A stretch of DNA of 49,715 bases from IMG/VR virus record IMGVR_UViG_2851949629_000006, positions 1 through 49,715 of that record. One strand, written 5' to 3'. Positions 1,260-47,955 of the stretch are shown piece by piece; the stretch's first letter is position 1, and each line of letters opens with the position of its first letter. The stretch comes from a virus. Taxonomy: Duplodnaviria; Heunggongvirae; Uroviricota; Caudoviricetes. The position numbers were made by a program, and so were the translations under genes. The notes below the pieces were generated by a model that worked only from the letters and a program-made list of their open reading frames with translations, ran no database searches and was not told where the DNA came from.

Positions 1260-1549
1260 CTATCCTTCCTGGACTTTGGTAAGCGTCAGATTTCCGCAGA
1301 ACACTGCGCCGGTGTCGATGTACATCTGGTTTGCATACACCAGTGGGTGATGTGCTGGCGTATGACCGAAGATGAACAAATCGGCACCGGTTATCTCCGA
1401 GACAATACCGTCCTGCGCGTCGCTAACCCGCTCACGATTCCATATCACCATTTCTTCTGGTACTGGCTTATCGAATGCGTATTCGTTGTGCGGGTAGTCT
1501 GCGTGACAGATGACGACCTTCTTATTGCCGGTAACCAGTTCGATAATCA
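1260..1549 (-). pseudogene. C-terminal fragment of a phage Ser/Thr protein phosphatase (lambda PPase-like), separated from its N-terminal part by the IS66 insertion
   Basis: Translation ...[32 protein letters not shown]...[17 protein letters not shown] matches my recollection of the lambda phosphatase C-terminus. Fragment ends exactly at the IS terminus at 1550. Confidence 0.7.
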
Positions 1550-1579
1550 GTAAGCGTCAACGGAGCACCGTATTGACGC

Positions 1580-2113
1580 TTATTTATTAGTGAGTACTAC
1601 GTTCCATGGCAGGAGTTCGTCAACTCGGTTGGAAGGCCATTCCGGCAGTACGCTCAGGATATGGCGCAGATACGCTTCCGGATCGATACCATTCAACCGG
1701 CAGGTGCCGATCAGCCCGTACAACAGTGCACCACGCTCGCCGCCGTGATCGCTACCGAAGAACACGTAATTTTTCTTTCCGAGACAGACTGCACGAAGCG
1801 CTCTTTCCGCTGTGTTATTGTCCGCCTCCGCCAGACCGTCATCACAGAAGTTGCACAACGCAACCCAGTGCTTCCTGATATACCGGAACGCATCTCTCAG
1901 ACGGCATTTTTTCGATAACGTGTGTTCTTTCTCCTGCATCAGCTTATACAGGGAAGTCAGTAGCGGTTTACTCTGCATTTGCCTGACCGCCAGGCGTTCA
2001 GACACCGGCAACCCGCGTATTTCGTGCTCAATGGCGTACAGTTCGCCGATTAGTTTCAGTGCTTCTTCCGCCGTCGCGCTTTTGGTACTGATATATACAT
2101 CGTGGATTTTGCG
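1580..2113 (-). pseudogene. tnpC: IS66 transposase TnpC, C-terminal fragment of copy 3 (cut by copy 2 insertion)
   Basis: ORF translation aligns with the C-terminal ~140 aa of the full 537-aa TnpC but with substitutions; reading frame runs up to the copy-2 terminus at 2114. Confidence 0.75.
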
Positions 2114-2143
2114 GTAAGCGTTAACGGAGTGCCGTATTGACGC

Positions 2144-3757
2144 TTATTTATTGGTGAGTACTACGTTCCATGGCAGGAGTTCGTCAACTCGGTTGGAAGG
2201 CCATTCCGGCAGTACGCTCAGGATATGGCGCAGATACGCTTCCGGATCGATACCGTTCAGTCGGCAGGTGCTGATCAGCCCGTACAACAGTGCTCCTCGC
2301 TCGCCGCCGTGATCGCTGCCGAAGAACATAAAGTTTTTCTTTCCGAGACAGACTGCACGAAGCGCTCTTTCCGCAGCATTATTATCCGCCTCCGCCAGAC
2401 CGTCATCACTGTAATAACAGAGGGCATCCCACTGATTCAGTACATAGCTGAACGCTTCGCCCAGTCTGGATTTTTTCGACAGCGTACCATTCTTCTCCAC
2501 CATCCATTCATGCAGCGACGTCAGTAACACTTTGCTTCGCTGCTGCCTGACGGCAAGACGCTCTGACTCCGGTAATCCCCGTATTTCATCCTCGATGGCG
2601 TACAGTTCACTGATTCGCTTCAGGGCTTCTTCTGCCGTCGCACTTTTGCTGCTGATGTATACATCGTGGATTTTTCGCCGGGCATGGGCCCAGCACGCAA
2701 CTTCTGTCAGTGCACCACCTTCACGTTCTGCACTGAACAACCTGTCGTAACCTGTGAACGCATCCGCCTGCAGGATACCCCGGAAGGGGCGGAGGTGTTG
2801 CTCCGGGTGTTTCCCCTGCCGGTTCGGCGAGTACGCGAACCAGACCGCTGGAGGAGATGACGAACCCACATTGCGATCATCCCGGACATACGTCCAGATA
2901 CGCCCTGTTTTCGCCTTTTTCTGACCCGGTGCCAGTACCTTTACCGGTGTGTCATCAGTGTGAACCTTGCGGGTGTTCATTACATAACGGTACAGGGCAT
3001 CATTCACCGGTGTCATTAACTGGCAGCACGCGTCAACCCAGTTGGAGAGTAAGGCCCGGCTCAGTTCGACACCCTGGCGGGCAAAGATTTCACTCTGACG
3101 ATACAGTGGCAGATGTTCGCAGTATTTTCCCGTTAACACGCGGGCAAGTAATCCGGGGCCCGCGATACCACGCTCTATCGGGCGGGACGGCGCCGGTGCT
3201 TCAACAATACAGTCACATTTTGTACAGGCTTTTTTTACCCGTTCTGTGCGGATCACTTTCAGGGCACTGCTCACCAGTTCCAGCTGTTCAGCGCTGACTT
3301 CCCCCAGATAATCCAGCTCACCGCCACACTCCGGGCAACAGCTTTCTTCTGGCTCCAGGCGGTGTATTTCACGGGGAAGGTGTGCCGGTAACGGACGACG
3401 ATGGCGCGACTGTCGCAACTGGCGGGGAACCTGAGGATCGTCTTCCCGCCCACTGTAACGATCGCTGTCCTGTTCACGTTGTTTCAGCAGAGCCTCAGCC
3501 AGTTCAACTTCACGACGCAGTTTTTCAGAACGGGTACCGAACAGCATCCGGCGCAGTTTTTCTATCTGAGCCCGCAGATGTTCTATTTCCCGTTCATCTT
3601 CTTCGATCTTTTCTTCGGCACGTGTCAGTGCAGAGCGCAGGAAGGCTTCCGTCTCTTCAACCAGACTCAGTTGCTGGTCTTTCTGACGGAGGGCTTCAGC
3701 CTGCTCAGAGAGCAACCTTTCCAGCTCTGCGATGCGAATGAGGTATTTCTGACTCAT
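2144..3757 (-). CDS. tnpC: IS66 transposase TnpC (copy 2), 537 aa
   Basis: Full-length ORF; translation identical to the copy-1 TnpC; coiled-coil N-terminus, CxxC zinc motif and DDE-type core typical of IS66 TnpC. Confidence 0.85.
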   Translation of the reverse strand: MSQKYLIRIAELERLLSEQAEALRQKDQQLSLVEETEAFLRSALTRAEEKIEEDEREIEHLRAQIEKLRRMLFGTRSEKLRREVELAEALLKQREQDSDRYSGREDDPQVPRQLRQSRHRRPLPAHLPREIHRLEPEESCCPECGGELDYLGEVSAEQLELVSSALKVIRTERVKKACTKCDCIVEAPAPSRPIERGIAGPGLLARVLTGKYCEHLPLYRQSEIFARQGVELSRALLSNWVDACCQLMTPVNDALYRYVMNTRKVHTDDTPVKVLAPGQKKAKTGRIWTYVRDDRNVGSSSPPAVWFAYSPNRQGKHPEQHLRPFRGILQADAFTGYDRLFSAEREGGALTEVACWAHARRKIHDVYISSKSATAEEALKRISELYAIEDEIRGLPESERLAVRQQRSKVLLTSLHEWMVEKNGTLSKKSRLGEAFSYVLNQWDALCYYSDDGLAEADNNAAERALRAVCLGKKNFMFFGSDHGGERGALLYGLISTCRLNGIDPEAYLRHILSVLPEWPSNRVDELLPWNVVLTNK

Positions 3758-3787
3758 GACCGTTTTTATAATGCGGTCAGGAGTTTT

Positions 3788-4070
3788 TTACAACATTGTC
3801 AGTGAGTTACGGCTGGATGTTTTTGGCTGACGCCAGTCCAGCTTATCGAGGAGCATTGCCAGTTGCGAGCGGGTAATGGATACCTTGCCGTCACGTACCG
3901 CAGGCCAGATAAACTGGCCTTCCTCCAGGCGTTTGGTGAACAGGCACAGACCATCAGCATCAGCCCAAAGAATTTTGACGGTGTCACCCCGTCGGCCACG
4001 GAAGATAAACAGGTGACCGGAGAAGGGATTATCATTCAGCACATGTTGTACCTGTTCTCCCAGTCCGTTG
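3788..4070 (-). pseudogene. tnpB: IS66 TnpB (orfB) of copy 2, C-terminal part, cut by copy 1
   Basis: Translation matches residues ~34-116 of intact TnpB (5745-6095); N-terminal remainder is at 6603-6678. Confidence 0.75.
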
Positions 4071-4100
4071 GTAAGCGTTAACGGAGTGCCGTATTGACGC

Positions 4101-5714
4101 TTATTTATTGGTGAGTACTACGTTCCATGGCAGGAGTTCGTCAACTCGGTTGGAAGGCCATTCCGGCAGTACGCTCAGGATATGGCGCAGATACGCTTCC
4201 GGATCGATACCGTTCAGTCGGCAGGTGCTGATCAGCCCGTACAACAGTGCTCCTCGCTCGCCGCCGTGATCGCTGCCGAAGAACATAAAGTTTTTCTTTC
4301 CGAGACAGACTGCACGAAGCGCTCTTTCCGCAGCATTATTATCCGCCTCCGCCAGACCGTCATCACTGTAATAACAGAGGGCATCCCACTGATTCAGTAC
4401 ATAGCTGAACGCTTCGCCCAGTCTGGATTTTTTCGACAGCGTACCATTCTTCTCCACCATCCATTCATGCAGCGACGTCAGTAACACTTTGCTTCGCTGC
4501 TGCCTGACGGCAAGACGCTCTGACTCCGGTAATCCCCGTATTTCATCCTCGATGGCGTACAGTTCACTGATTCGCTTCAGGGCTTCTTCTGCCGTCGCAC
4601 TTTTGCTGCTGATGTATACATCGTGGATTTTTCGCCGGGCATGGGCCCAGCACGCAACTTCTGTCAGTGCACCACCTTCACGTTCTGCACTGAACAACCT
4701 GTCGTAACCTGTGAACGCATCCGCCTGCAGGATACCCCGGAAGGGGCGGAGGTGTTGCTCCGGGTGTTTCCCCTGCCGGTTCGGCGAGTACGCGAACCAG
4801 ACCGCTGGAGGAGATGACGAACCCACATTGCGATCATCCCGGACATACGTCCAGATACGCCCTGTTTTCGCCTTTTTCTGACCCGGTGCCAGTACCTTTA
4901 CCGGTGTGTCATCAGTGTGAACCTTGCGGGTGTTCATTACATAACGGTACAGGGCATCATTCACCGGTGTCATTAACTGGCAGCACGCGTCAACCCAGTT
5001 GGAGAGTAAGGCCCGGCTCAGTTCGACACCCTGGCGGGCAAAGATTTCACTCTGACGATACAGTGGCAGATGTTCGCAGTATTTTCCCGTTAACACGCGG
5101 GCAAGTAATCCGGGGCCCGCGATACCACGCTCTATCGGGCGGGACGGCGCCGGTGCTTCAACAATACAGTCACATTTTGTACAGGCTTTTTTTACCCGTT
5201 CTGTGCGGATCACTTTCAGGGCACTGCTCACCAGTTCCAGCTGTTCAGCGCTGACTTCCCCCAGATAATCCAGCTCACCGCCACACTCCGGGCAACAGCT
5301 TTCTTCTGGCTCCAGGCGGTGTATTTCACGGGGAAGGTGTGCCGGTAACGGACGACGATGGCGCGACTGTCGCAACTGGCGGGGAACCTGAGGATCGTCT
5401 TCCCGCCCACTGTAACGATCGCTGTCCTGTTCACGTTGTTTCAGCAGAGCCTCAGCCAGTTCAACTTCACGACGCAGTTTTTCAGAACGGGTACCGAACA
5501 GCATCCGGCGCAGTTTTTCTATCTGAGCCCGCAGATGTTCTATTTCCCGTTCATCTTCTTCGATCTTTTCTTCGGCACGTGTCAGTGCAGAGCGCAGGAA
5601 GGCTTCCGTCTCTTCAACCAGACTCAGTTGCTGGTCTTTCTGACGGAGGGCTTCAGCCTGCTCAGAGAGCAACCTTTCCAGCTCTGCGATGCGAATGAGG
5701 TATTTCTGACTCAT
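4101..5714 (-). CDS. tnpC: IS66 transposase TnpC (copy 1), 537 aa
   Basis: Intact ORF, identical to 2144-3757. Confidence 0.85.
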   Translation of the reverse strand: MSQKYLIRIAELERLLSEQAEALRQKDQQLSLVEETEAFLRSALTRAEEKIEEDEREIEHLRAQIEKLRRMLFGTRSEKLRREVELAEALLKQREQDSDRYSGREDDPQVPRQLRQSRHRRPLPAHLPREIHRLEPEESCCPECGGELDYLGEVSAEQLELVSSALKVIRTERVKKACTKCDCIVEAPAPSRPIERGIAGPGLLARVLTGKYCEHLPLYRQSEIFARQGVELSRALLSNWVDACCQLMTPVNDALYRYVMNTRKVHTDDTPVKVLAPGQKKAKTGRIWTYVRDDRNVGSSSPPAVWFAYSPNRQGKHPEQHLRPFRGILQADAFTGYDRLFSAEREGGALTEVACWAHARRKIHDVYISSKSATAEEALKRISELYAIEDEIRGLPESERLAVRQQRSKVLLTSLHEWMVEKNGTLSKKSRLGEAFSYVLNQWDALCYYSDDGLAEADNNAAERALRAVCLGKKNFMFFGSDHGGERGALLYGLISTCRLNGIDPEAYLRHILSVLPEWPSNRVDELLPWNVVLTNK

Positions 5715-5744
5715 GACCGTTTTTATAATGCGGTCAGGAGTTTT

Positions 5745-6095
5745 TTACAACATTGTCAGTGAGTTACGGCGGGATGTTTTTGGCTGACGCCAGTCCAGTT
5801 TATCGAGGAGCATTGCCAGTTGCGAGCGGGTAATGGATACCTTGCCGTCACGTACCGCAGGCCAGATAAACTGGCCTTCCTCCAGGCGTTTGGTGAACAG
5901 GCACAGACCATCAGCATCAGCCCAAAGAATTTTGACGGTGTCACCCCGTCGGCCACGGAAGATAAACAGGTGACCGGAGAAGGGATTATCATTCAGCACA
6001 TGTTGTACCTGTTCTCCCAGTCCGTTGAAGGATTTACGCATATCGGTAACGCCGGCAACGAGCCAGATACGGGTACCTGATGGGAGTGAGATCAT
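5745..6095 (-). CDS. tnpB: IS66 accessory protein TnpB (orfB), copy 1
   Basis: 116-aa ORF between tnpA and tnpC, 4-bp overlap with tnpA; typical IS66 orfB size and position. Confidence 0.8.
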   Translation of the reverse strand: MISLPSGTRIWLVAGVTDMRKSFNGLGEQVQHVLNDNPFSGHLFIFRGRRGDTVKILWADADGLCLFTKRLEEGQFIWPAVRDGKVSITRSQLAMLLDKLDWRQPKTSRRNSLTML

Positions 6096-6517
6096 CTTCC
6101 CCTCCCGGTCAGTTCACGGATCAACACTGTGAGCAGCTCTGGCGATGGATTTTCCAGCGTCATGTTACCGTGACGGAATTCCACCTTGCAGGAACTGGCA
6201 CTGACTCTGGTCTGAGTGGAAGTGGATAAAGACGGCGCAATGGCCGCCACAGGTTCTTTCTGCTCATCCGGCGTTATTTCTACAGGTAATAATTCAACGC
6301 CAGTGTCAGAAGAGGTCGTTACCGGAAGACGCCGCGAAACACGCCCTTCGTTCTGCCAGAGCCTGAGCCATTTGAAAATAACATTATCATTGACGCCATT
6401 TTCACGTGCAATCTGTGCAACACAAGCTCCAGGTTGTGATGCCAGTTCCACCATACGAAGTTTGAATTCATTCGAATAGTTTTTACGAGGTTCTTTTCGC
6501 CAGTCCTGTAATTCCAT
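6092..6517 (-). CDS. tnpA: IS66 accessory protein TnpA (orfA), copy 1
   Basis: 141-aa ORF with a helix-turn-helix region (NEFKLRMVELASQPGACVAQIARENGV); first gene of the IS66 operon. Confidence 0.8.
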   Translation of the reverse strand: MELQDWRKEPRKNYSNEFKLRMVELASQPGACVAQIARENGVNDNVIFKWLRLWQNEGRVSRRLPVTTSSDTGVELLPVEITPDEQKEPVAAIAPSLSTSTQTRVSASSCKVEFRHGNMTLENPSPELLTVLIRELTGRGR

Positions 6518-6602
6518 ACTTAGATGTCCGTCTATATCAGATGGGCGTCTAAGTTACCAATTCTCGTCTGATGGCTACATACGGCGGTCAGTTTACGCTT
6601 AC

Positions 6603-6678
6603 GTCCGTTGAAGGATTTACGCATATCGGTAACGCCGGCAACGAGCCAGATACGGGTACCTGATGGGAGTGAGATCAT
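6603..6678 (-). pseudogene. tnpB: IS66 TnpB (orfB) of copy 2, N-terminal 25 codons, continues at 3788-4070
   Basis: Reverse complement encodes MISLPSGTRIWLVAGVTDMRKSFNG, identical to the TnpB N-terminus; interrupted at the GTCCGTTG duplication. Confidence 0.75.
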
Positions 6679-7100
6679 CTTCCCCTCCCGGTCAGTTCAC
6701 GGATCAACACTGTGAGCAGCTCTGGCGATGGATTTTCCAGCGTCATGTTACCGTGACGGAATTCCACCTTGCAGGAACTGGCACTGACTCTGGTCTGAGT
6801 GGAAGTGGATAAAGACGGCGCAATGGCCGCCACAGGTTCTTTCTGCTCATCCGGCGTTATTTCTACAGGTAATAATTCAACGCCAGTGTCAGAAGAGGTC
6901 GTTACCGGAAGACGCCGCGAAACACGCCCTTCGTTCTGCCAGAGCCTGAGCCATTTGAAAATAACATTATCATTGACGCCATTTTCACGTGCAATCTGTG
7001 CAACACAAGCTCCAGGTTGTGATGCCAGTTCCACCATACGAAGTTTGAATTCATTCGAATAGTTTTTACGAGGTTCTTTTCGCCAGTCCTGTAATTCCAT
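6675..7100 (-). CDS. tnpA: IS66 accessory protein TnpA (orfA), copy 2
   Basis: Identical translation to 6092-6517. Confidence 0.8.
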   Translation of the reverse strand: MELQDWRKEPRKNYSNEFKLRMVELASQPGACVAQIARENGVNDNVIFKWLRLWQNEGRVSRRLPVTTSSDTGVELLPVEITPDEQKEPVAAIAPSLSTSTQTRVSASSCKVEFRHGNMTLENPSPELLTVLIRELTGRGR

Positions 7101-7185
7101 ACTTAGATGTCCGTCTATATCAGATGGGCGTCTAAGTTACCAATTCTCGTCTGATGGCTACATACGGCGGTCAGTTTACGCTTAC

Positions 7186-8273
7186 ATTTTGCGCCGCGCA
7201 TGAGCCCAGCATCCTGCTTCCGTCAACGCGCCGCCTTCACGTTCGGCACTGAACAGCCGATCGTAACCTGCGAACGCATCTGCCTGCAGGATACCCCGGA
7301 AGGGACGAAGGTGTTGCTCCGGATGTTTACCCTGATGGTCCGGTGAGTAGGCGAACCAGACCGCCGGAGGTTCTGGCGAACCGGCATTTCGGTCATCCCG
7401 GACATACGTCCAGATATATCCTGTTTTCGCCTTCTTCCTGCCCGGTGCCAGTACTTTTACTGGTGTGTCATCAGTGTGAACCTTGCGGGTGTTCATCACA
7501 TAACTGTACAGGGCATCATTCAGCGGAGTCATTAACTGGCAGCACGCATCAACCCAGTTGGAGAGTAAGGCACGGCTCAGTTCGACACCCTGGCGGGCAA
7601 AGATTTCACTCTGACGATACAGTGGCAGGTGTTCGCAGTATTTTCCCGTTAACACGCGGGCAAGTAACCCCGGGCCCGCGATACCACGCTCTATCGGACG
7701 GGATGGTGCCGGTGCTTCAACGATGCAGTCACATTTTGTACAGGCTTTTTTTACCCGTTCTGTGCGGATCACTTTCAGGGCGCTGCTCACCAGCTCCAGT
7801 TGTTCTGCGCTGACTTCCCCCAGATAATCCAGCTCACCGCCACACTCCGGGCAACAGCTTTCTTCAGGCTCCAGGCGGTATATTTCACGGGGGAGATGTG
7901 CCGGTAACGGACGACGATGGCGCGACTGTCGCAACTGGCGGGGAACCAGCGGGTCATCCTCACGCCCACTGTAACGATCGCTTTCCTGCTCGCGTTGTTT
8001 CAGCAGGACTTCAGCCTGTTCAACCTCACTACGCAGTTTTTCAGAACGGGTTCCGAACAGCATCCGGCGCAGTTTTTCTATCTGAGCCCGCAGATGCTCT
8101 ATTTCTCGCTCATCTTCTTCGATCTTTTCTTCGGCACGTGCCAGTGCAGAGCGCAGGAAGGCCTCCGTCTCTTCAACCAGACTCAGTTGCTGGTCTTTCT
8201 GACGGAGGGCTTCAGCCTGCTCAGAGAGCAGCCTTTCCAGCTCAGCGATGCGAATGAGGTATTTCTGACCCAT
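7186..8273 (-). pseudogene. tnpC: IS66 transposase TnpC of copy 3, N-terminal ~360 codons (cut by copy 2)
   Basis: Translation MGQKYLIRIAELERLL... is a diverged homolog of copy 1/2 TnpC; ORF runs into the copy-2 terminus and stops 4 nt inside it. Confidence 0.75.
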
Positions 8274-8303
8274 GGCCGTTTTTATAATCCGGCCCGGCGT
8301 TTT

Positions 8304-8654
8304 TTACAACATTGTCAGTGCGTTAAGGCGGGATGTTTTTGGCTGACGCCAGTCCAGCTTATCGAGGAGCATTGCCAGTTGCGAGCGGGTAATGGATATC
8401 TTACCGTCATGCACCGCAGGCCAGATAAACTGACCTTCCTCAAGGCGTTTGGTGAACAGGCACAGACCATCAGCATCAGCCCACAGGATTTTAATCGTGT
8501 CTCCCCGTCGGCCACGGAAGATAAACAGGTGACCGGAGAAGGGGTTATCATCCAGCACATGCTGTATCTGCTCCCCCAGACCGTTGAAGGATTTACGCAT
8601 ATCAGTAACGCCGGCAACGAGCCAGATACGGGTACCTGATGGGAGTGAAATCAT
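8304..8654 (-). CDS. tnpB: IS66 accessory protein TnpB (orfB), copy 3
   Basis: 116-aa ORF, diverged homolog of copy-1 TnpB. Confidence 0.8.
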   Translation of the reverse strand: MISLPSGTRIWLVAGVTDMRKSFNGLGEQIQHVLDDNPFSGHLFIFRGRRGDTIKILWADADGLCLFTKRLEEGQFIWPAVHDGKISITRSQLAMLLDKLDWRQPKTSRLNALTML

Positions 8655-9088
8655 CGTCCCCTCCCGGTCAGCTCACGGATCAACACCGTGAGCAGCTCTG
8701 GTGAAGGATTTTCCAGCATCATTTTACCGTAATGGAATTCCACATGGCAGGAAGCTGCACAAGCAACTGATAATGCCTCCGGAGCAGGAGCATCTGTAGC
8801 ACAGCGCGGGGTGTCGATAAGTTCCACTGGAACCAGAGTCGGAGAGGCCGGAAAAGATTGTGATACTGTAGGGCCTACAATAGTTGGAGGCATTCTACGA
8901 GAAATACGTCCTTCTCTTTGCCAGAGGCGTAGCCATTTAAAAATCAGGTTGTTATCAACGCCATGTTCCCGGGCCAGTTGTGCAACATTGGCATTTGGTT
9001 TCGAAGCCAGTTCAACCATATGAAGTTTAAATTCATTAGAAAATATCCGGCGGGTTCCGGAGCGCCAGTCTGTAGGTTTATCCATCAA
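8651..9088 (-). CDS. tnpA: IS66 accessory protein TnpA (orfA), copy 3
   Basis: 145-aa ORF, diverged homolog of copy-1 TnpA (conserved NEFKL.MVELAS and FKWLRLWQ segments). Confidence 0.8.
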   Translation of the reverse strand: MMDKPTDWRSGTRRIFSNEFKLHMVELASKPNANVAQLAREHGVDNNLIFKWLRLWQREGRISRRMPPTIVGPTVSQSFPASPTLVPVELIDTPRCATDAPAPEALSVACAASCHVEFHYGKMMLENPSPELLTVLIRELTGRGR

Positions 9089-9170
9089 TAGAACTCCGTC
9101 TAATTTAGAAGGAGCTCTAATTTAGTCTGCAAGGAGCAGGTGTTACAGACGGCATTGGCTTTACGCTTAC

Positions 9171-40142: not shown

Positions 40143-40151
40143 GGAAGTGTT

Positions 40152-40325
40152 GTGTTTTTAATTATTTTGAGTGTGATAATTTCTGGTGGATTGTTATTTA
40201 TTGACCGCTACAAATATTTTCTTAACCCTCAGACTCAAGCTATTTGCTGGTTCATCTTTGTTGTGCAGGGAGTAGTTCTTGTTGCAAGCCTTATTGAGGG
40301 GAGGCCTCTTATTTTTACTGGGTAA
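40152..40325 (+). CDS. small membrane protein (57 aa)
   Basis: GTG start with AAGGAAG RBS 4 nt upstream; two hydrophobic segments; not in the ORF track (below its length cutoff); AT-rich. Confidence 0.4.
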   Translation: MFLIILSVIISGGLLFIDRYKYFLNPQTQAICWFIFVVQGVVLVASLIEGRPLIFTG

Positions 40326-40337
40326 ATAGGTGACTAC

Positions 40338-40634
40338 ATGCAAGCTATAGGATTCATTGTTTATATCGTCGTTGGTCTTTTTCAGTTGGCAGCAATTATG
40401 GCTGGGCTTGAATCATGGTGGGGATTGCACTGGATAATTGCAGCCCCCATTGCTTTCATCGTGAGCTATATTCCATTTGTTGGAGCGATTGTTGGTATGG
40501 TTGGCGCTGTGGATGTATGGCGGTGGGAGTGGTGGCAGGCTGGCCTTCTCTTCTTTGGTGGGATCATCTTTGCTATTGTCTGCGGTGGAATGTCATCATT
40601 TTTCGAACGGCTATCATTCAGAAAAGGAACGTGA
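40338..40634 (+). CDS. integral membrane protein (98 aa, about 3 TM segments)
   Basis: ATG with AGGTGA RBS; hydrophobic throughout; followed by an intrinsic terminator. Confidence 0.5.
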   Translation: MQAIGFIVYIVVGLFQLAAIMAGLESWWGLHWIIAAPIAFIVSYIPFVGAIVGMVGAVDVWRWEWWQAGLLFFGGIIFAIVCGGMSSFFERLSFRKGT

Positions 40635-40642
40635 CATGTCAC

Positions 40643-40667
40643 AGGCCGCTTTCGCGGCCTTGTTTTT
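40643..40667 (+). terminator. rho-independent terminator (AGGCCGCTTTCGCGGCCT + TGTTTTT)
   Basis: 7-bp GC stem, 4-nt loop and T-run; the 18-bp core GGCCGCTTTCGCGGCCTT recurs at 43564-43581. Confidence 0.65.
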
Positions 40668-40728
40668 AACGAATGCCACCGCCACCCGGGCGGGAATCCG
40701 CAGACACAAAAAAGCCCGCGTCGCGGGC

Positions 40729-41268
40729 TTACCAAAACTTGTACCACGGGGATTTATCCTTCAATGGACAATCCTTCCATCGTGTGGCCAACCATTCATA
40801 TTCTTTAAAATATGTGTTTATGTTTTCTTTTTCTCTAATAGCTTGTATAAGAGGTAGCGCAATCTGATAGTTATTTACAACGGAGCTGTAAAATACTTCC
40901 TTAATCATGGTCTCATCATAAGTTTTCCGCTTCACGCTCACAGCCATGCGTTCGTAGAAACCTAGACAGTAAATTATTTCTCTCTTCTCTATCTTTTCTT
41001 CATCCGTAAGATCAGCCTGCCCATTGCTTGGATACATATAAGAGCGGAATGATTTGTTCGATTCGTGAATGCGGCGCATAGTAGATAGGCCTTTCTTATA
41101 ATCTACATCAAACCTGCTTTCACCAAGGAATACTGAAGTGTGTACTTTTCTCGCTGTATTTACATTATAAATAATAGTAGCGATAGCTATGAACAAGCCA
41201 AGCGAAACCGCGACTGCACTTACGATTTGAGCCACAGCCATGGCAAATTGCATTTCTTCACTTAACAC
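40729..41268 (-). CDS. N-terminally membrane-anchored protein (179 aa), accessory gene
   Basis: GTG start with GGAGA RBS; one N-terminal TM helix (FAMAVAQIVSAVAVSLGLFIAIATIIY) then a soluble domain; AT-rich codon usage. Confidence 0.5.
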   Translation of the reverse strand: MLSEEMQFAMAVAQIVSAVAVSLGLFIAIATIIYNVNTARKVHTSVFLGESRFDVDYKKGLSTMRRIHESNKSFRSYMYPSNGQADLTDEEKIEKREIIYCLGFYERMAVSVKRKTYDETMIKEVFYSSVVNNYQIALPLIQAIREKENINTYFKEYEWLATRWKDCPLKDKSPWYKFW

Positions 41269-41289
41269 AAACTGTCTCCAGACATGAAA

Positions 41290-41309
41290 ACGGGGCCTAA
41301 TGGCCCCGT
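41290..41309 (-). terminator. intrinsic terminator downstream of the antirepressor gene
   Basis: Hairpin ACGGGGCC-TAAT-GGCCCCGT; on the minus strand it is followed by TTTTCAT. Confidence 0.5.
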
Positions 41310-41485
41310 CATAAAACTATCCGAATGTTAAACGCCTTCGTACTCGTCAAATTTTCTCATGTGGGCTCCTCCTGTATCGGTGCCTAATCGCTATGGATCA
41401 CCCGTAAGGTAATAGTACTCTATTCACCCCCGGTCTGCAATCTGTACAGAATTATTTAAAGGCACATCCCTGTGCCGCCGTTCTG

Positions 41486-42142
41486 TCAGAAGAACCCTGC
41501 CTTGTCGTTGATGTACTCCGCGTGAGTCTGGATATCACGCAGGCATTTGCTCACACCGACGATGTAGCAGAACATGGTGGTCAGCTCCGCCGCCGCGCCC
41601 GATACGTCGTGCCCGTCGTCCTGTAACTGGTTCAGCAGATTCATCAGCAGTGAGTTCTCCGTCAGGCCGAGAACACCAGACGGAGAATGAATCAGACTGC
41701 GGTAGCCAGGCTTCAGTGGGGCGCTGTATTCTTTTTTGTCTTCCAGCTTGATCGCCTCCATAATGGCGGGCATGAAGCCTGACAAGACCTTCTCCACTTT
41801 TGTTTCTTGTTGTCTTAAACGTTTCTCGCATTCAATGAAGTAGCGTCGCACCTGGCGACCTTTTTCGTTACGCTCGACCATTGCCAGCTCTTTGGCTGTA
41901 TCGAGGGTGAGGTGGTACTCTTTGCGGTTGTGGCCGCCTCTACCAGATGTTTGCTTTCCCAAATTGGAAAGCAAAATATAGTCTTGATTTTCAATGAATT
42001 CGTATTCTGAAATTCGATTTGTAATCCATGCTGCAAACACCTTTTTAACACCTAAAAAAGCGTGCAGATCGCGGGCATTACAAAGTAGGGCTGTTTCGTT
42101 AGATATAGTGCCGTTGAATACGGGGATGAGTTGAGCGTTCAT
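41486..42142 (-). CDS. antirepressor (AntA/Ant-like)
   Basis: 218 aa; N-terminal ...[22 protein letters not shown]... and ...[35 protein letters not shown]... resemble the AntA/AntB N-terminal domain. GGAG RBS. Confidence 0.6.
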
Positions 42143-42296
42143 GATGGTGTCTCCACTTAGCGAATTACATCACCACCGCAACGCCAATTACTGGTGGTGA
42201 ACTGAACAAGGTTGGCGTACCGGCCTAAGTGGTACCGGCGTCCTTTCGGACCCCTGCCCAGCCCACCATAATTCGGATATAGCTGTGCTTAACGCA

Positions 42297-42320
42297 TAAA
42301 AAAACCACGTCTGGCGTGGT
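42297..42320 (-). terminator. intrinsic terminator/attenuator within the ant leader (or 3' end of a small RNA)
   Basis: Minus strand reads ACCACG-CCAGA-CGTGGT followed by seven T (plus strand A-run 42298-42304); located about 110 nt downstream of the predicted ant promoter and about 150 nt upstream of the ant start codon. Confidence 0.5.
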
Positions 42321-42410
42321 ATGCGCCACTTAGTAACTCGGGACGCCAATCCCGGCACTGGATTTTGCCAGTGCCCGATTACTATGGCACAAGAGGAGTG
42401 CGATGTAAAT

Positions 42411-42533
42411 TTACCGTAAAGGTAATAATAAATGCATAACTCACGTTATTTCAACCCTATGTGGTTTGATTGATCCCATTTCAGAAAATACCTGCCTATT
42501 TTTTTGCCAGTATGCGTATACTTTCGATAGAAT
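42411..42533. promoter_or_regulatory. divergent promoter region: operator TTACCGTAAAGGTAA (42411-42425), motif TATGTGGTT (42458-42466), and a plus-strand sigma70-like promoter TTGCCA-17bp-TAGAAT (42505-42533)
   Basis: Operator identical in form to O_L/O_R; on the minus strand a TTGAAA -35 with the -10 overlapping the operator is positioned to drive the ant leader. Confidence 0.5.
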
Positions 42534-42562
42534 GTTAACCCTAGAGGTAGTTGGGGGTGCCC

Positions 42563-43066
42563 ATGAACACGAAGAGAGTTGCAGCGATGAGGCATAGACG
42601 CTTGACCTTGAAAAAGTCTGAAAAAGAAAAAGAGAAAAAGATGGTGATTGAAGCAGCCGCCATAGCAACTGCCAATGCCATCAGGATTCATGATGAAGAA
42701 GTTGAGCAAAAATACCCGGTTATGTTCATCACTGAATACGACCAGCATGAGGCATTGTTAAAAATCCGGGGCACATCTTTTGAAGGAATCTTGGCAGATA
42801 AGCTTCATCGTGCCTCATGTCAAACGAATATAATGCGACCTTACGAGTCAAGGCTAATCGAAACTGGACGCTCCAAGGATAAGCAGCAATTAGTTGAGAT
42901 GATAAAGCGGTATTATAAGTCATCTTTTAAGCCTACAGCGTCACATGAGGTTGTAATGCGAGAAGTACCAAAGATGTCTGTTGAAAAATCGCATGCAATC
43001 TCGCGCAGGATGTTTGCACGCACTGCTGAAGATATGGCTCAGGAGCTCTACGACGATGCCGAATAA
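42563..43066 (+). CDS. hypothetical protein, upstream partner of the YafO-like gene (candidate antitoxin/immunity)
   Basis: 167 aa from the ATG at 42563 (ORF track starts at TTG 42551); basic N-terminus; stop overlaps the downstream start (ATGCCGAATAA). Confidence 0.45.
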   Translation: MNTKRVAAMRHRRLTLKKSEKEKEKKMVIEAAAIATANAIRIHDEEVEQKYPVMFITEYDQHEALLKIRGTSFEGILADKLHRASCQTNIMRPYESRLIETGRSKDKQQLVEMIKRYYKSSFKPTASHEVVMREVPKMSVEKSHAISRRMFARTAEDMAQELYDDAE

Positions 43067-43562
43067 ATTCCAGGGGTTGGTTCACCCTGGAATTTTTGGG
43101 AAGGACCCTGAGCTAATACCTATCAAAAACGCGTTCATAGATCACTGGCGCTACGGTCATCATAAGGATTTCGGAAAGGACACTCTGTTTCGGGATCCAC
43201 CGAAAGAGATGCTGGAATATCACATACGCCACGTTCACGTAAACATCGGAAACTATACTGACAAGTTTGGTGAGAGCGGTACGGAACAATGCTGGAAAAA
43301 CTGGGCATCCGGGAAGAAAGACAAGACCACCAACAAGCATAAAAAAATACCAACCAGTGATGTATATGTGATTTATCTTGTAACGTCTGAGCGACATGCG
43401 TTTCTTCTGGATTACTGGGATGAGCCAGCACACAAAAAAGTAGAAATTGACGAACAGAAACAAAAACTTCTTGTCGAGTGTGACAGAATTTTGCGGCGGA
43501 AAAATTTAGAATCCATGCCGCGCGATGCAAGTTTGTGGGACCCGGAATTTTACGACTGTTAA
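43056..43562 (+). CDS. YafO-family toxin-like protein (candidate type II toxin)
   Basis: 168 aa; segments HHKDFGKDTLFRDP and YHIRHVHVNIGN resemble the YafO segments DTFGRDALYDD and ERVAHIHLANE as I recall them. Confidence 0.45.
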   Translation: MPNKFQGLVHPGIFGKDPELIPIKNAFIDHWRYGHHKDFGKDTLFRDPPKEMLEYHIRHVHVNIGNYTDKFGESGTEQCWKNWASGKKDKTTNKHKKIPTSDVYVIYLVTSERHAFLLDYWDEPAHKKVEIDEQKQKLLVECDRILRRKNLESMPRDASLWDPEFYDC

Positions 43563-43563
43563 T

Positions 43564-43581
43564 GGCCGCTTTCGCGGCCTT
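43564..43581. terminator. hairpin GGCCGCTTTCGCGGCCTT between convergent genes (second copy of the 40644 hairpin)
   Basis: Exact 18-bp repeat of 40644-40661; 6-bp GC stem with TTTC loop; T-rich flank. Confidence 0.5.
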
Positions 43582-43586
43582 TAAAT

Positions 43587-43862
43587 TTACCGGGTTTGTT
43601 TTCGTAATTGTTCGGCACAATAGTCGAGATGTGTTTGCAGATCCTGCATAGACATCTGTGAGCTGGTGACGTAGTTAATCAGTGCAGTCAGTTCGGCAAG
43701 TGGGCCATCGACATTAAATCCATCCTTATCGAGATCCCGGAGTAATTTCATCAAGTGCGATCCCTCCACCAGTGACCTGACGCCTCCCGGCGTGTGAATC
43801 CTTTCGGTAAATCCGTCTTCCAGTGGATAGTGATACCGCTGCATCTTATCTTCTCCATGCAA
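43587..43862 (-). CDS. small protein paralogous to the antirepressor C-terminal domain
   Basis: 91 aa; ...TPGGVRSLVEGSHLMKLLRDLDKDGFNVDGPLAELTALINYV...MQDLQTHLDY... parallels ...[42 protein letters not shown]...[10 protein letters not shown]... of the 41486-42142 product. Confidence 0.5.
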   Translation of the reverse strand: MHGEDKMQRYHYPLEDGFTERIHTPGGVRSLVEGSHLMKLLRDLDKDGFNVDGPLAELTALINYVTSSQMSMQDLQTHLDYCAEQLRKQTR

Positions 43863-43920
43863 TAACTGTATAAATATACAGTACCAAATAATTTATTGTC
43901 TATCCAGCACGTTTTGCAAA

Positions 43921-43975
43921 TCACCTGAAAGGTAATATCTGTTCGTATTCACAGTCTGTCTATCCATATGTGGTT
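43921..43975. promoter_or_regulatory. divergent promoter region with operator TCACCTGAAAGGTAA (43921-43935) and motif CCATATGTGGTT (43964-43975)
   Basis: Between the Ant-C-like gene (minus) and the tail fibre gene (plus). Confidence 0.5.
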
Positions 43976-44039
43976 TTTCAGGTAATAAAATAACCCAGCA
44001 TGCGGCGCAACGGGTGCTGCGACTATCTGGAGATTTAAA

Positions 44040-46061
44040 ATGACGGTCTCAACCGAAGTTGGCCACAACGAATACACTGGTAACGGCGTTACGACTACAT
44101 TCCCTTATACATTCAGGGTTTTCGATAAATCTGATCTGGTAGTGCAGATAGTTGACCTTGAAGAGAATATCACTGTCCTGGTTCTTGATACCGATTACTC
44201 AGTAACCGGGGTGGGGGGATACAATGGTGGCAATGTAATGCTGAGGACAGCGTTAACTTCTGGTTATCGTATTTTTGTATCGCGTGAGCTGCCTGTTACG
44301 CAGGAAACAGATCTGCGCAATCAGGGAAAGTTTCTGGCAGAGGTGCATGAGGATGCATTTGATAAGCTGACGATGCTTATTCAGCAAGTATTTTATAACC
44401 TGAGCAAGGTAATAAAAGTTCCTGAATCAGGGAACTGGTTGGTTCCAACAATTAGGTTAAGAAAGAATAAAATCTTTGCATGGGACGAAGAGGGAAATCC
44501 AATTGCTGTATCACCTGAATCAGGTAGTGCCTCTGATGTAATGATTGAGCTGGCAAAATCATCCGGGGCTGGGTTGATTGGCACAACGTCGGGGGGGACC
44601 GTTCAATCAGTACTGGATGAGTGTCATGCAAGGCTCATCACATGTGAGCGCAACAGCCGGGTGGAAAATTTTTACACGCTGGCGGAAACCTGCACAGCGG
44701 AGCTTTTATCGCTGAATGCCCCGGAGGCATATGACAAATCCATTACGCTGACGGTCAATGAGGAACTGACCACGGACTATACCGGTCCGGTCACAGGTCA
44801 TTGCAGCATCGGTAATCCGCATAACTACACCATTGCGATGTGTACGAGCACAACTCTGGAATATCAGGTTTCCTCGGTGGTACTGGAGAGTGACGGCACG
44901 TTCAGTTTCGCCAGAAGCTGGACTGGGGCTAAGTCTTTTAAACTGTATCGTACATCAAATAACGGTCTGGCAACCGTCTGGGAAGATCCGCTGTGTATCC
45001 GCTCTTACCGGATGCCATCGGATGCCGGGGATGAAACGGTAAGGGTGATGAAAGACCGTACATACACTTATGATCAGGCGGTGTCAGCTATTGCACTGAT
45101 GGCGCAGGGGAATAGTCAGGTGGAACAGTTTGTCCGTGGTTTGTGCGCGATTGTGGGTAGTGGTGGTAGCGAGGGGAGTGTGCCTTTTTTCGTGAACCGC
45201 ATGTCAGCGCAGACATCGTCACAGTATTACCGGACGGGAAACGCAGCGTGGGTGGCGTATGCGCTGGCGTATTATCTGCAGAAATATCCGGATGGTGAAA
45301 TGGCCGTTGTTGCCCGGGATAAACTAACGCAGTGCGCAGAGTGGATTGAAACGTTCAGAGTAGCAGACAGTGGTGATATTCGTTATGGGTTGTATACATC
45401 CGGTAGCGGACGGTATCTGGATGGCGTCTTTTACCCTGATTTTAAAGCAGACTGGTGCACATCGGAGCACCAGTTTGATTTGTGGTTTCTGTTTGACCTG
45501 ATGGGGCGGGTAGGCTTCACCGGCTACGCTGAAAAGGCGAAAGCCCTGGCGGATGCCATTATGGAAAAGCTGTGGGTGGAGGATGAAGGGCGATTTTATG
45601 CCGGGATGCGAACCACCGGGCCTGACAAGGCCTCACCACTGGACTGTGCAAGCTGGGGCGGGCTGTTTGTGTACAATATCGATATGGAAAAAGCCCGGCG
45701 GTGTTTTACTTACCTGGACAGATTCTGGTACGCCACGCACGATGCGACAGGGTACATGCCTTATCATCCGGAATATGGCTACCCGAATAAACAGCGGGGA
45801 GTCTGGGTGGAGGGCAGTGCAGGCGTGGCATTGCTGGCCCGTAGACTGGGAGATGATGCCACCGCGATGGATATTCTGGCGAGGCTGGCACCACTGCGCA
45901 CACGTTATGGTTACATTGATTCAAGCGATTATCCAGATAATGATGACATGCCGCCGTGGCCTTCTTCCTGCAACACGGCCTGGATGATACTGGCATGCGA
46001 TCCGCAGGGGTTCTGGAACGTTGGGGTAAGTAGTCTGTCTGGACGTTATTATAGGTATTGA
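44040..46061 (+). CDS. tail fibre/tailspike with T7 gp17-like N-terminal adaptor domain and a predicted enzymatic C-terminal domain
   Basis: N-terminal ...VTTTFPYTFRVFDKSDLVVQIVD...ITVLVLDTDYSVTG parallels the T7 gp17 N-terminus (...DFNIPFEYLARKFVVVTLIG...KVLTINTDYRF). C-terminal ~400 aa is helix-rich with Trp/Tyr/Asp/Glu-rich segments, suggesting an alpha/alpha-barrel glycosidase rather than a beta-helix. Confidence 0.55.
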   Translation: MTVSTEVGHNEYTGNGVTTTFPYTFRVFDKSDLVVQIVDLEENITVLVLDTDYSVTGVGGYNGGNVMLRTALTSGYRIFVSRELPVTQETDLRNQGKFLAEVHEDAFDKLTMLIQQVFYNLSKVIKVPESGNWLVPTIRLRKNKIFAWDEEGNPIAVSPESGSASDVMIELAKSSGAGLIGTTSGGTVQSVLDECHARLITCERNSRVENFYTLAETCTAELLSLNAPEAYDKSITLTVNEELTTDYTGPVTGHCSIGNPHNYTIAMCTSTTLEYQVSSVVLESDGTFSFARSWTGAKSFKLYRTSNNGLATVWEDPLCIRSYRMPSDAGDETVRVMKDRTYTYDQAVSAIALMAQGNSQVEQFVRGLCAIVGSGGSEGSVPFFVNRMSAQTSSQYYRTGNAAWVAYALAYYLQKYPDGEMAVVARDKLTQCAEWIETFRVADSGDIRYGLYTSGSGRYLDGVFYPDFKADWCTSEHQFDLWFLFDLMGRVGFTGYAEKAKALADAIMEKLWVEDEGRFYAGMRTTGPDKASPLDCASWGGLFVYNIDMEKARRCFTYLDRFWYATHDATGYMPYHPEYGYPNKQRGVWVEGSAGVALLARRLGDDATAMDILARLAPLRTRYGYIDSSDYPDNDDMPPWPSSCNTAWMILACDPQGFWNVGVSSLSGRYYRY

Positions 46062-46157
46062 TTTCTGATAAAGTAATAATTTAACCACATATGGTTTATT
46101 GTGTATGATGAACTCATCAATAAGTGGGTTCTTCATGCACATTAAACGGTGGTTTTT

Positions 46158-46562
46158 ATGTCAGTTCAGCTAACCAGTGAGTCTTTAAATCAGTGGCTTA
46201 GTGCGAGTTCTCTTGCTGCGGTGATAGCAGGGGTTCCTCCAGAGGTGGCTTTGGGAGCTTTGGCTGGGGCGGTAATTTTTGTTACCTCAGCCATCGAGTA
46301 TCCCATTCATCGCCGGGTTCTCCTGTCTATGCTCAGCTTCCTCTGCGGCCTTCTCTTTTACAAACCTACAGCATCCATCCTTATCGGTGTAGCCAGCCTG
46401 ATCCCTACCATCACGCATGACTCTTTCGAGAAAGGGATCGTCTTCTCTGCTGGCGCATTTGTGTCGTCAATTGTCGCCGTGCGAATTGGTATATGGCTTT
46501 ATCACCGTTCCGATAATCCACGAGAGTTAATTCCGGGGAGAAAAGACGATGGTAACGCATGA
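46158..46562 (+). CDS. holin (candidate)
   Basis: ATG at 46158 with GGTGG RBS; about 3 hydrophobic segments and a charged C-terminus; first gene of the lysis cassette. Confidence 0.55.
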   Translation: MSVQLTSESLNQWLSASSLAAVIAGVPPEVALGALAGAVIFVTSAIEYPIHRRVLLSMLSFLCGLLFYKPTASILIGVASLIPTITHDSFEKGIVFSAGAFVSSIVAVRIGIWLYHRSDNPRELIPGRKDDGNA

Positions 46563-46857
46563 CCTTTTTTTACTTATCACCAATGCAGTTATTTGTACTG
46601 GCATAGCAATTCGCGTTGTCACATTCCGGCGTAACGGCTCTCAACATCGAAGATGGGGAGGGTGGCTTGCTTATTTCCTTATTGTTGCTGCGGCCAGTAT
46701 TCCTGTTCGTGTCGTCTATGCAATCTGGTTACGCACGCCAATGGCTGTGGATTTATCTGAGGTCATTATCAACGCTGTCATGCTTGCTGCGGTTATTAAA
46801 ACGCGCGGTAACGTCGTTCAGATTTTCAAAATAACGAGGTCTAAACATGGAGATTAA
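46549..46857 (+). CDS. second holin-like/antiholin-like membrane protein
   Basis: 102 aa with 3 hydrophobic segments; overlaps holin and endolysin genes. Confidence 0.5.
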
Positions 46858-47476
46858 ACAATTCCAGCGAGCTGCTGGTATTAGCGAGGCGCTGGCCGCT
46901 CGCTGGTTCTCGCATATAACTTCTGCGATGAAAGAGTTTGGTATCAGCAAAGCAGAAGATCAGGCAATGTTTATTGCTCAAGTCGGGCATGAGTCTGGGG
47001 GCTTCACCCGGTTGCAGGAAAATTTCAACTACAGCGTCAGCGGACTGGCTAACTTCGTTCGGGCTGGGCGTCTCACTCAGGGACAGGCTAATGCACTTGG
47101 TCGCCGTGCTGGTGAACCACCATTGCCACTCGAGCGCCAGAGAGCGATCGCCAATCTGGTGTACAGCAAACGCATGGGGAACAATGCCTCTGGTGATGGC
47201 TGGAATTACCGTGGCCGCGGACTTATCCAGATTACCGGTTTGAATAACTATCGTGATTGCGGAAACGGCCTGAAAGTGGACCTGCTGGAGAATCCTGAAC
47301 TGTTGGCGCAGGACGAATACGCGGCTCGTAGCGCGGCGTGGTTCTTCTCCAGCAAAGGTTGCATGAAGTATACCGGCGATATTGCACGTGTAACTCTGAT
47401 TATCAATGGTGGCCGGAACGGCATCGACGACCGGCGCGCGCGATACATCAATGCCAGTAAGGTGCTGGCGGTATGA
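46847..47476 (+). CDS. endolysin, glycoside hydrolase family 19 (chitinase-like lysozyme)
   Basis: Motif [12 protein letters not shown] matches the GH19 catalytic signature (compare plant chitinase FLAQTSHETTGG); RBS GAGGT 6 nt upstream. Confidence 0.7.
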
Positions 47477-47955
47477 TCTGGGCATTCGTAAAAGCATACC
47501 GGAAACAGTTGATTATCATGGCGGTGCTTGCTGTTCTGGTCATATCAGGAGTTGTTGCCTGGAGTGTACACGGCAGTCGTCAGTACGACGCCGGGTATGC
47601 GCAGGCGAAAGAAGACCGCAAAACCGAAGATGAGAGAATTCGTCAGCACTACGAACAGGAGAAAGCGATCAATGAACGTGAAGCGCAGCAGAGGATCGAC
47701 CAGGCGCGCAATGATGCTCTTGATGCTGCCGCTCGCGCTGGCCGGTTGCAGCAACAGCTCGTTGCCATCCGTGAGCAGCTCAGGCAGTATAACGCCATTG
47801 TCGGCGCTGGGACGTCAGCCGCAGACACCGGAGTTTTGCTTGCCGACGTGCTCAGTAAATCTCTCGAGAGAAACAGACAACTGGCAGAGTATGCTGACCG
47901 GGCAGCCGAAGCCGGAAGAGTCTGTGAAAAACAGTACGACACCCTGACCAGATAG
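47473..47955 (+). CDS. Rz-like inner-membrane spanin (i-spanin)
   Basis: N-terminal TM helix ([18 protein letters not shown]) then a charged coiled-coil periplasmic domain; last gene of the lysis cassette. Confidence 0.65.
47672..47947 (+). CDS. Rz1-like outer-membrane lipoprotein spanin (o-spanin), embedded in the +1 frame of the i-spanin gene
   Basis: Signal peptide with lipobox [26 protein letters not shown], Pro/Ser-rich mature part; AGGAGA RBS 9 nt upstream of the ATG at 47672. Confidence 0.6.
   Translation: MNVKRSRGSTRRAMMLLMLPLALAGCSNSSLPSVSSSGSITPLSALGRQPQTPEFCLPTCSVNLSRETDNWQSMLTGQPKPEESVKNSTTP

Follow-up and report, generated by a model that had tools for sequence, protein, structure and literature searches.

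The virus record IMGVR_UViG_2851949629_000006 in IMG/VR (49,715 nucleotides; its full length is hereafter the window) is a whole epsilon15/phiV10-like (Uetakevirus-type) podoviral prophage beside the host genes yfgI/yfgH/yfgG. The product of its gene at positions 44040–46061 (plus strand) is the single tailspike of the prophage, encoded late in the virion module. Structure prediction indicates that the distal domain of this tailspike is almost certainly an (α/α)6 six-hairpin barrel, which replaces the usual β-helix. The best explanation of the combined data, which we consider rather probable, is that an anchor, a neck, and this barrel head together form a tailspike that cleaves a polysaccharide of the host envelope.

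The gene is an intact open reading frame (ORF) with an ATG start, encoding 673 residues followed by a stop codon, and the protein is 100% identical to the Escherichia coli "phage tail protein" WP_129547269.1 in RefSeq. Comparison with five alleles from complete E. coli genomes gave a ratio of nonsynonymous to synonymous differences (pN/pS) of 0.10–0.15 and no disruptions. Hence, the tailspike gene is a maintained coding sequence rather than a chance ORF, and it is under purifying selection. It has the same neighbors in six complete E. coli genomes; at the DNA level, the gene has no match in any isolated phage of the INPHARED collection.

A predicted (α/α)6 barrel in the distal module

AlphaFold2 (AF2) was run on residues 190–673 with a 15-sequence alignment, and the model has a predicted local distance difference test score (pLDDT) of 77 and a predicted template modeling score (pTM) of 0.80. 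It contains two neck helices, a β-sandwich (residues ~236–316), and a domain of 12–13 helices (residues ~331–653), an arrangement that is reproduced in a full-length run. In the predicted model, the twelve or so helices are organized as six inner/outer hairpins, and a β-helical receptor-binding or enzymatic domain of the Uetakevirus kind was not found. The barrel domain, the putative glycoside hydrolase (GH) and receptor-binding head, spans residues 321–660 (45000–46019, on the plus strand as are the other parts of the gene). It is preceded by the start of the universally shared module, residues 207–320 (44658–44999), where DSSP assignment on both AF2 models (pLDDT mostly 75–95) gives a short strand, a helix at residues 214–225, and the β-sandwich, which has seven strands. 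An RxENF motif at residues 207–211 is invariant across all types of N-terminal chassis on which the module occurs, and part of the 207–320 region is also covered by many remote homologs. The C-terminal tail, residues 661–673 (VGVSSLSGRYYRY) plus the stop codon (46020–46061), is variable except for the terminal tyrosine; Y673 is invariant in alignments A1 and A3, and a short terminal strand is predicted at residues 670–672.

Structural neighbors of the model include dextran dextrinase (9ju0, score 29.5), the methylmannose-polysaccharide hydrolase MmpH (7qsj, 29.0), a GH15-related glycosidase (5z3a, 28.2), cellobiose 2-epimerases (5zig and 4z4j, ~28), GH76 mannanases (4v1r and others, ~27), glucoamylase (1lf6, 25.1), and the tailspike VP4 of the archaeal virus SSV19 (7xdi_F, 22.1). 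The majority of the high-scoring neighbors are hydrolases. Foldseek is in agreement, with matches to GH76, GH78 rhamnosidases, GH116, and AGE-type isomerases, and in BFVD a structural search gave significant matches to just two viral entries, F9VHN7 and F9VHR4.

An initial annotation of this DNA, made from the sequence alone, had proposed an α/α-barrel, glycoside hydrolase-like domain instead of a β-helix. The AF2 models and their structural neighbors bear this out, and neither a β-helix nor a lectin fold was seen. The helix-like segments on which that proposal drew are present at residues 344–354, 401–412, and 478–488, inside predicted helices 343–355, 399–415, and 474–490. The described richness in aromatic and acidic residues is likewise real: residues 330–673 contain 3.2% W, 7.8% Y, and 4.4% F (15.4% aromatic) together with 8.1% D and 4.1% E, and the aromatics and Asp exceed their levels in residues 1–189. 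The helical domain had been estimated at about 400 residues; its helical nature stands, and its length is corrected to ~330 residues (~330–660), with two neck helices and the β-sandwich (~207–320) in front of it.

Conserved residues and the barrel family

In an alignment of 128 domain sequences, from phages and from cellular proteins, with a median identity of 29% to the window protein, sixteen residues are conserved at 95% or more: Y344, D345, G400, G455, E476, H477, D480, G522, L534, D535, W539, G571, W589, E591, G592, and W648. Just behind these come D529 (95%), W512 (91%), and R398 (90%). For twelve of the sixteen, the position is −1 to +6 relative to the N-terminus of helix 2, 4, 6, 8, 11, or 13, which are the six alternate helices. 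The carboxylates conserved to at least 95% number six, and the twelve include five of them. In (α/α)6 barrels, the N-termini of alternate helices form a funnel, and the active site sits there. The window protein has all of the conserved residues, and the 8–14 substitutions that distinguish the alleles leave them untouched. The six carboxylates, together with the His, Arg, and Trp residues at alternate-helix N-termini, suggest a glycosidase-like site. We regard a carbohydrate-binding funnel in the barrel as likely, and that the barrel is a hydrolase as a proposal deserving moderate confidence.

MmpH offers a point of comparison, as it has a proven base, Glu262, and acid candidates, Asp47/Asp50, near its first helices (PMC9883506). 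E591 is placed ~79% along the barrel, and Glu262 is at 76% of the 345-residue MmpH. By this analogy, E591 and D345 would occupy relative positions similar to those of Glu262 and Asp47/Asp50.

A profile search against 1.84 billion cluster representatives returned 623 relatives at E ≤ 1e-3, with 153 at E ≤ 1e-30. The family extends over phages of Proteobacteria, Actinobacteria, Thermus, and Firmicutes and includes cellular proteins; tblastn added relatives from phages of Microbacterium, Thermus, and Coprococcus, and a search for related loci with alignment A1 yielded mostly enterobacterial prophage contigs. Ten remote representatives are unnamed or "hypothetical". Profile and sequence matches to RAD14, FadD21, and the orange carotenoid protein were at chance level and were discarded. 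A literature search on tailspikes or tail fibers combined with barrel, toroid, six-hairpin, or glucoamylase topics found no paper that describes the family.

Membership in established families was considered in turn. Neither the protein nor any of 99 family members matched Glyco_hydro_15 in Pfam, and profiles run against PDB sequences gave negative results; on the predicted model, the likeness to GH15 is structural only. Nor was there a Pfam match to GH76. The AGE and cellobiose 2-epimerase type, with two catalytic histidines, does not fit: H477 is the only family-wide histidine, and H576 is found only in close relatives. MGH1-like_GH (PF22422; GH63-like, clan GH-G) belongs to the same fold class and is the only Pfam family matched repeatedly by remote members; the window protein itself has no match to it. 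By sequence, the barrel family fits none of GH15, GH76, GH63, and the AGE superfamily and is an undescribed one; although large, it is covered by no Pfam model and no solved structure, and none of its members is known to be characterized. The sole functional label seen on any member is "glucosidase family protein", given by PGAP to a 214-residue C-terminal fragment of a sister-clade barrel in E. coli TW10690 (CP127034; 4750–5394 of the stretch examined), where the rest of the fiber gene is broken.

Anchor, neck, and exchange of the module

The N-terminal virion anchor (residues 1–132; 44040–44435) is of the Uetakevirus tailspike type. In a PDB sequence search, it aligns with the N-terminal part of Dpo31/Dpo36, depolymerases of solved structure (E 5e-24), and many tailspike PHROGs match residues 1–125. 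Moreover, residues 1–181/189 are 54–58% identical to the N-termini of the epsilon15, phiV10, SPN1S, and TL-2011b tailspikes (tblastn, E 1e-63 to 1e-68). On these homologies, the protein genuinely belongs to the Uetakevirus family of tailspike anchors. The whole protein has no Pfam match to the T7 gp17 adaptor (PF03906, Phage_T7_tail), even at E ≤ 1; one homolog only, on an unrelated chassis, touches this family (E 0.008). The "gp17-like adaptor" of the initial annotation is actually an epsilon15 gp20-type anchor, and the name holds as a functional analogy only.

The linker or neck (residues 133–206; 44436–44657) contains the module junction, as located by the start of homology, a shared motif, and synonymous divergence. 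The conserved neck motif ASDVMIELAKSSGAGLIGTTSGGTVQSVLD (residues 164–193, nucleotides 44529–44618; alignment A3) is common to PF18668-type and other spikes. Similarity to proteins on other N-terminal chassis starts at nucleotide 562 of the gene (approximately residue 188) and stops at nucleotide ~1979–1982. Among alleles, synonymous divergence (pS) is 0.007–0.015 for residues 1–188 vs 0.06–0.13 for residues 189–673, a rise of roughly 4- to 18-fold. This jump across ASDVMIELAKSSGAGLIGTTSGGTVQSVLD has the signature of module exchange and suggests a recombination hotspot at the junction.

The part from residue ~189 to 673 is an exchangeable receptor module. It is also fused to PF18668 (CBA120 TSP1-type) N-domains, to PF03406/PF12571 P2-type fibers, to PF08400/PF13620 lambdoid Stf N-domains, and to a second podoviral anchor, and carriers with these varied N-termini occur in E. 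coli, Salmonella, and Citrobacter. In phiSTEC1575-Stx2k, the module follows J and Lom, i.e., it is in the side-tail-fiber position. A stand-alone homolog of 494 residues, 47% identical and without a tail-anchor domain, is encoded by the jumbo Asteriusvirus ph0011 (OP557969; 4950–6434 of the stretch examined). Its gene lies among many small hypothetical genes and not in a tail module; hence, this homolog could be a soluble enzyme.

Distribution of the module over O-serogroups

O-types were assigned from wzx/wzy names in the PGAP annotation that carry an O-type. E. coli KFu019, which has a 98.5% identical gene (8 amino acid differences), is O69; the O69 wzy was present in only three genomes, and KFu019 alone of these also has the module. 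Strain 4/4 (CP023826) is O25. A chimeric query, consisting of the module and the O25 wzx, was compared with the module alone, such that an extra place in a genome marks it as O25. Extra places appeared only in 4/4 and Ecol_542, i.e., two of the 23 carriers are O25, compared with about 459 of 5426 genomes in the background. The identical tailspike protein is present in one O25 strain and in one strain that is neither O25 nor O69. In the sister clade (52% identical, on lambdoid prophages), the proteins are at least 99% identical among O27:H7, O169:H41, and O6:H16 strains. The subtype of the receptor domain did not co-vary with the O-antigen cluster of the lysogen.

Uetakevirus receptor-binding proteins (RBPs) generally correlate with O serogroup (PMC10408124). 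Unlike these typical RBPs, the module does not co-vary with O-serogroup. The occurrence of the same or nearly the same protein in O25, O69, and other strains makes a simple O-serogroup specificity doubtful, and the substrate is probably not a single serogroup-specific O-antigen. Accordingly, the expectation in the initial annotation that the domain sets host polysaccharide specificity is weakened. Two caveats apply to O-typing of lysogens: they can switch O-antigen after integration, and the window prophage, with its IS66 insertions, may be old. Two particular targets were rejected. An O8/O9 polymannan, considered on account of the mannanase-like structural neighbors, is unsupported, the typed carriers being O69 and O25; and O25 specificity, considered on account of O25b:H4-ST131 labels, is accompanied by no enrichment. 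A third caveat concerns strain 4/4: in its O25 cluster, the gene at the expected wzy position is frameshifted (4865–5927 of the stretch examined), so that full-length O-antigen may not be made.

Proposed mechanism and alternative explanations

In the mechanism that we infer, which covers trimeric assembly, substrate, catalysis, and the roles of catalytic residues, the spike would be a trimer held together by anchor and neck, as in its relatives, and would presumably display three barrel heads. Each barrel would bind a polysaccharide chain of the host envelope in the funnel that the six inner helices form with their N-termini, and a glycosidic bond would then be cut by acid/base hydrolysis. This hydrolysis would most likely be of the inverting type, as in the structurally closest enzymes (the GH15 clan and MmpH). 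For the general base, the candidate is E591; for the general acid, it is E476 or D345. Sugar binding may involve H477, D480, D529, D535, R398, Y344, W512, W539, W589, and W648. By cutting the glycan, the virion with its short tail would advance through this layer down to the outer membrane, in the manner of β-helix tailspikes.

Several observations count against a polysaccharide-cleaving barrel spike. The distal module has no sequence match in Pfam, NCBIfam, or PDB, with single sequences or with profiles A1 and A2. The MGH1-like_GH matches are weak, occurring in 7 of 99 remote members at E ≥ 1e-3 (best 0.001). An hhalign comparison of the family profile with an A. niger glucoamylase sequence gave no significant result (probability 0.14); it aligned only YTYDQA with YTWTRDS, which is a lead and not evidence. 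That the conserved residues come together in one pocket is deduced from helix positions in the predicted model, in which the loops at residues 385–394 and 564–586 are poorly predicted (both AF2 runs). Residues 1–206 have pLDDT < 50 in the full-length monomer model, which is uninformative on anchor or trimer. Moreover, epimerases, isomerases, terpene cyclases, and phosphorylases are built on the same fold as well. The carriers have unrelated O-antigen clusters, and the IS66 insertions mean that the prophage may be defective.

The barrel might instead be a classical O-antigen depolymerase that cuts one O-antigen repeat and sets host range by serogroup. The general behavior of Uetakevirus RBPs speaks for this, as does the epsilon15 spike, which is reported to be an O-antigen enzyme. 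In addition, the O69 and O25 clusters both encode dTDP-rhamnose synthesis and glycosyltransferases, with GH78 rhamnosidases among the Foldseek matches, and some identical or near-identical proteins, in two different chassis, are labeled O25b:H4-ST131. Set against the distribution over serogroups described above, we consider this explanation unlikely. A different proposal makes the barrel the phage-borne founder of a new glycoside hydrolase family, with a glycan shared across Enterobacterales as its substrate, e.g., enterobacterial common antigen, colanic acid, or the outer core of lipopolysaccharide. A shared substrate would account for identical or near-identical modules in strains of O25, O69, and other types and in Salmonella and Citrobacter as well as E. 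coli, and for the capture of the module by four unrelated chassis (podoviral anchor, CBA120-type TSP N-domain, P2-type fiber, and lambdoid Stf). We put this forward tentatively, as an idea with a minor share of the probability.

Two further explanations depart from hydrolysis altogether. The head could be catalytically silent, a lectin-like domain derived from an enzyme fold that serves reversible attachment only. The module does occupy the side-tail-fiber position on lambdoid phages, where binding suffices, and it has no sequence match to any characterized hydrolase. However, the retention in full of six carboxylates, one His, and several Trp residues that are at least 95% conserved at a median identity of 29% is typical of a preserved catalytic centre, and allelic substitutions have spared every one of these conserved positions; a binding-only head is thus distinctly improbable. 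The same barrel could also carry a carbohydrate-active enzyme that is not a hydrolase, i.e., a polysaccharide lyase, an AGE-type epimerase or isomerase, a phosphorylase, or a transglycosylase. The AGE type uses two catalytic histidines, yet a single one is conserved family-wide; an epimerase or a phosphorylase has no evident use on an extracellular virion; and most high-scoring structural neighbors are hydrolases. This is the least probable of the explanations, and a tailspike with a polysaccharide-hydrolyzing barrel is the one that we prefer.

Comparison with known systems

The epsilon15 gp20 and phiV10 tailspikes resemble the window protein in their homologous anchor, genomic position, prophage type, and presumed role as the sole receptor-binding and receptor-destroying protein. 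Epsilon15/phiV10-type spikes are annotated as right-handed β-helices, whereas the distal domain of the window protein is predicted to be an (α/α)6 barrel, and there is no sequence similarity past residue ~190. For the epsilon15 tailspike, a trimeric section shaped like a barrel and bearing esterase petals is reported.

Enzymes of the GH15 clan (GH-L) and MmpH (9ju0, 7qsj, 5z3a, 1lf6, and the glucodextranase 1ulv) have 10–13% sequence identity to the window barrel. They are cytoplasmic or secreted metabolic enzymes, whereas the window barrel is part of a virion. A precedent on a virion is VP4 of SSV19, an archaeal fusellovirus with a sevenfold tail (7xdi_F); it has 14% identity and no detectable sequence relation to the window barrel, and its barrel is of a different subfamily, with GH76-like residues of its own conserved. 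SSV19 virions, with the mannanase-like barrel of VP4, hydrolyze host glycan (PMC12042106).

To our knowledge, almost all characterized tailspike depolymerases of enterobacterial phages are trimeric β-helices, and the tools for finding depolymerases are trained on that fold. With an (α/α)6 barrel and no sequence relatives in Pfam or PDB, the present module would escape such tools. The DepoScope survey found the α/α toroid to be rare among phage depolymerase candidates (11 of 984, 1.1%) (PMC11326577). Its candidates were picked via InterPro polysaccharide-degrading domains, and the present family, which lacks a Pfam match, would probably have been missed.

The role of a tailspike as a depolymerase is itself known; what would be new is a virion-borne, polysaccharide-degrading RBP built on an undescribed (α/α)6 family. 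If active, the barrel would add a glycoside hydrolase family that is new and comprises 623 representative clusters. Its catalytic domain would be of the monomer type, and its production as a stand-alone enzyme might be simpler than for β-helices with intersubunit sites. It would possibly also be a receptor-destroying enzyme with a target other than the O-serogroup, and such a target matters for predicting host range and for enzymes directed at E. coli lineages such as ST131. To a specialist, the swap of fold and the absence of serogroup tracking may come as a moderate surprise, and they make the biochemical question concrete.

The prophage and its surroundings

The prophage starts with the integrase gene (1–1257). 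The window also encodes RecT, a protein with a PDDEXK-like domain (PF12684/DUF3799), and a repressor-like helix-turn-helix protein, as well as the portal (PF12236), the capsid, and large virion proteins. In the annotation of the KFu019 locus (CP091700; 98.5% identical), genes for portal, capsid, "capsid staple protein gp10", and a core protein of the T7 gp14 family stand upstream of the tailspike, and a Bbp16 cement protein is annotated too, which identifies an epsilon15-like (Uetakevirus-type) podovirus. Directly downstream of the tailspike gene lie the lysis cassette and then host yfgI/yfgH/yfgG (46149–47955, plus strand; Pfam and the CP091700 annotation). The cassette comprises two holins, a GH19 endolysin, and a DUF2514 spanin-like protein (PF16931, PF05449, PF00182, PF10721). 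A second fiber-like ORF was not seen in the ORF lists and in Pfam scans of selected window ORFs.

An accessory block of ~4 kb (40143–44039), mostly on the minus strand, separates the last large virion protein from the tailspike. It encodes a DUF4760 protein (40729–41268), an AntA/BRO-type antirepressor-like protein (41486–42142), and several ORFs without a Pfam match. Its guanine-cytosine content is 0.44–0.46, compared with ~0.50 elsewhere, and it varies among carriers, e.g., with a YafO toxin in E275a. Upstream of the portal gene, there is a tRNA-Arg (anticodon TCT) at 23624–23700 (minus strand), which is also annotated in the KFu019 copy. Nested or tandem IS66-family elements occupy the early region just past the integrase gene (1500–9100). 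They include two identical genes for a 537-residue transposase (2144–3757 and 4101–5714) and a third, truncated one (7182–8273), together with repeated TnpB/TnpA ORFs and direct repeats 1957 and 2559 bp apart.

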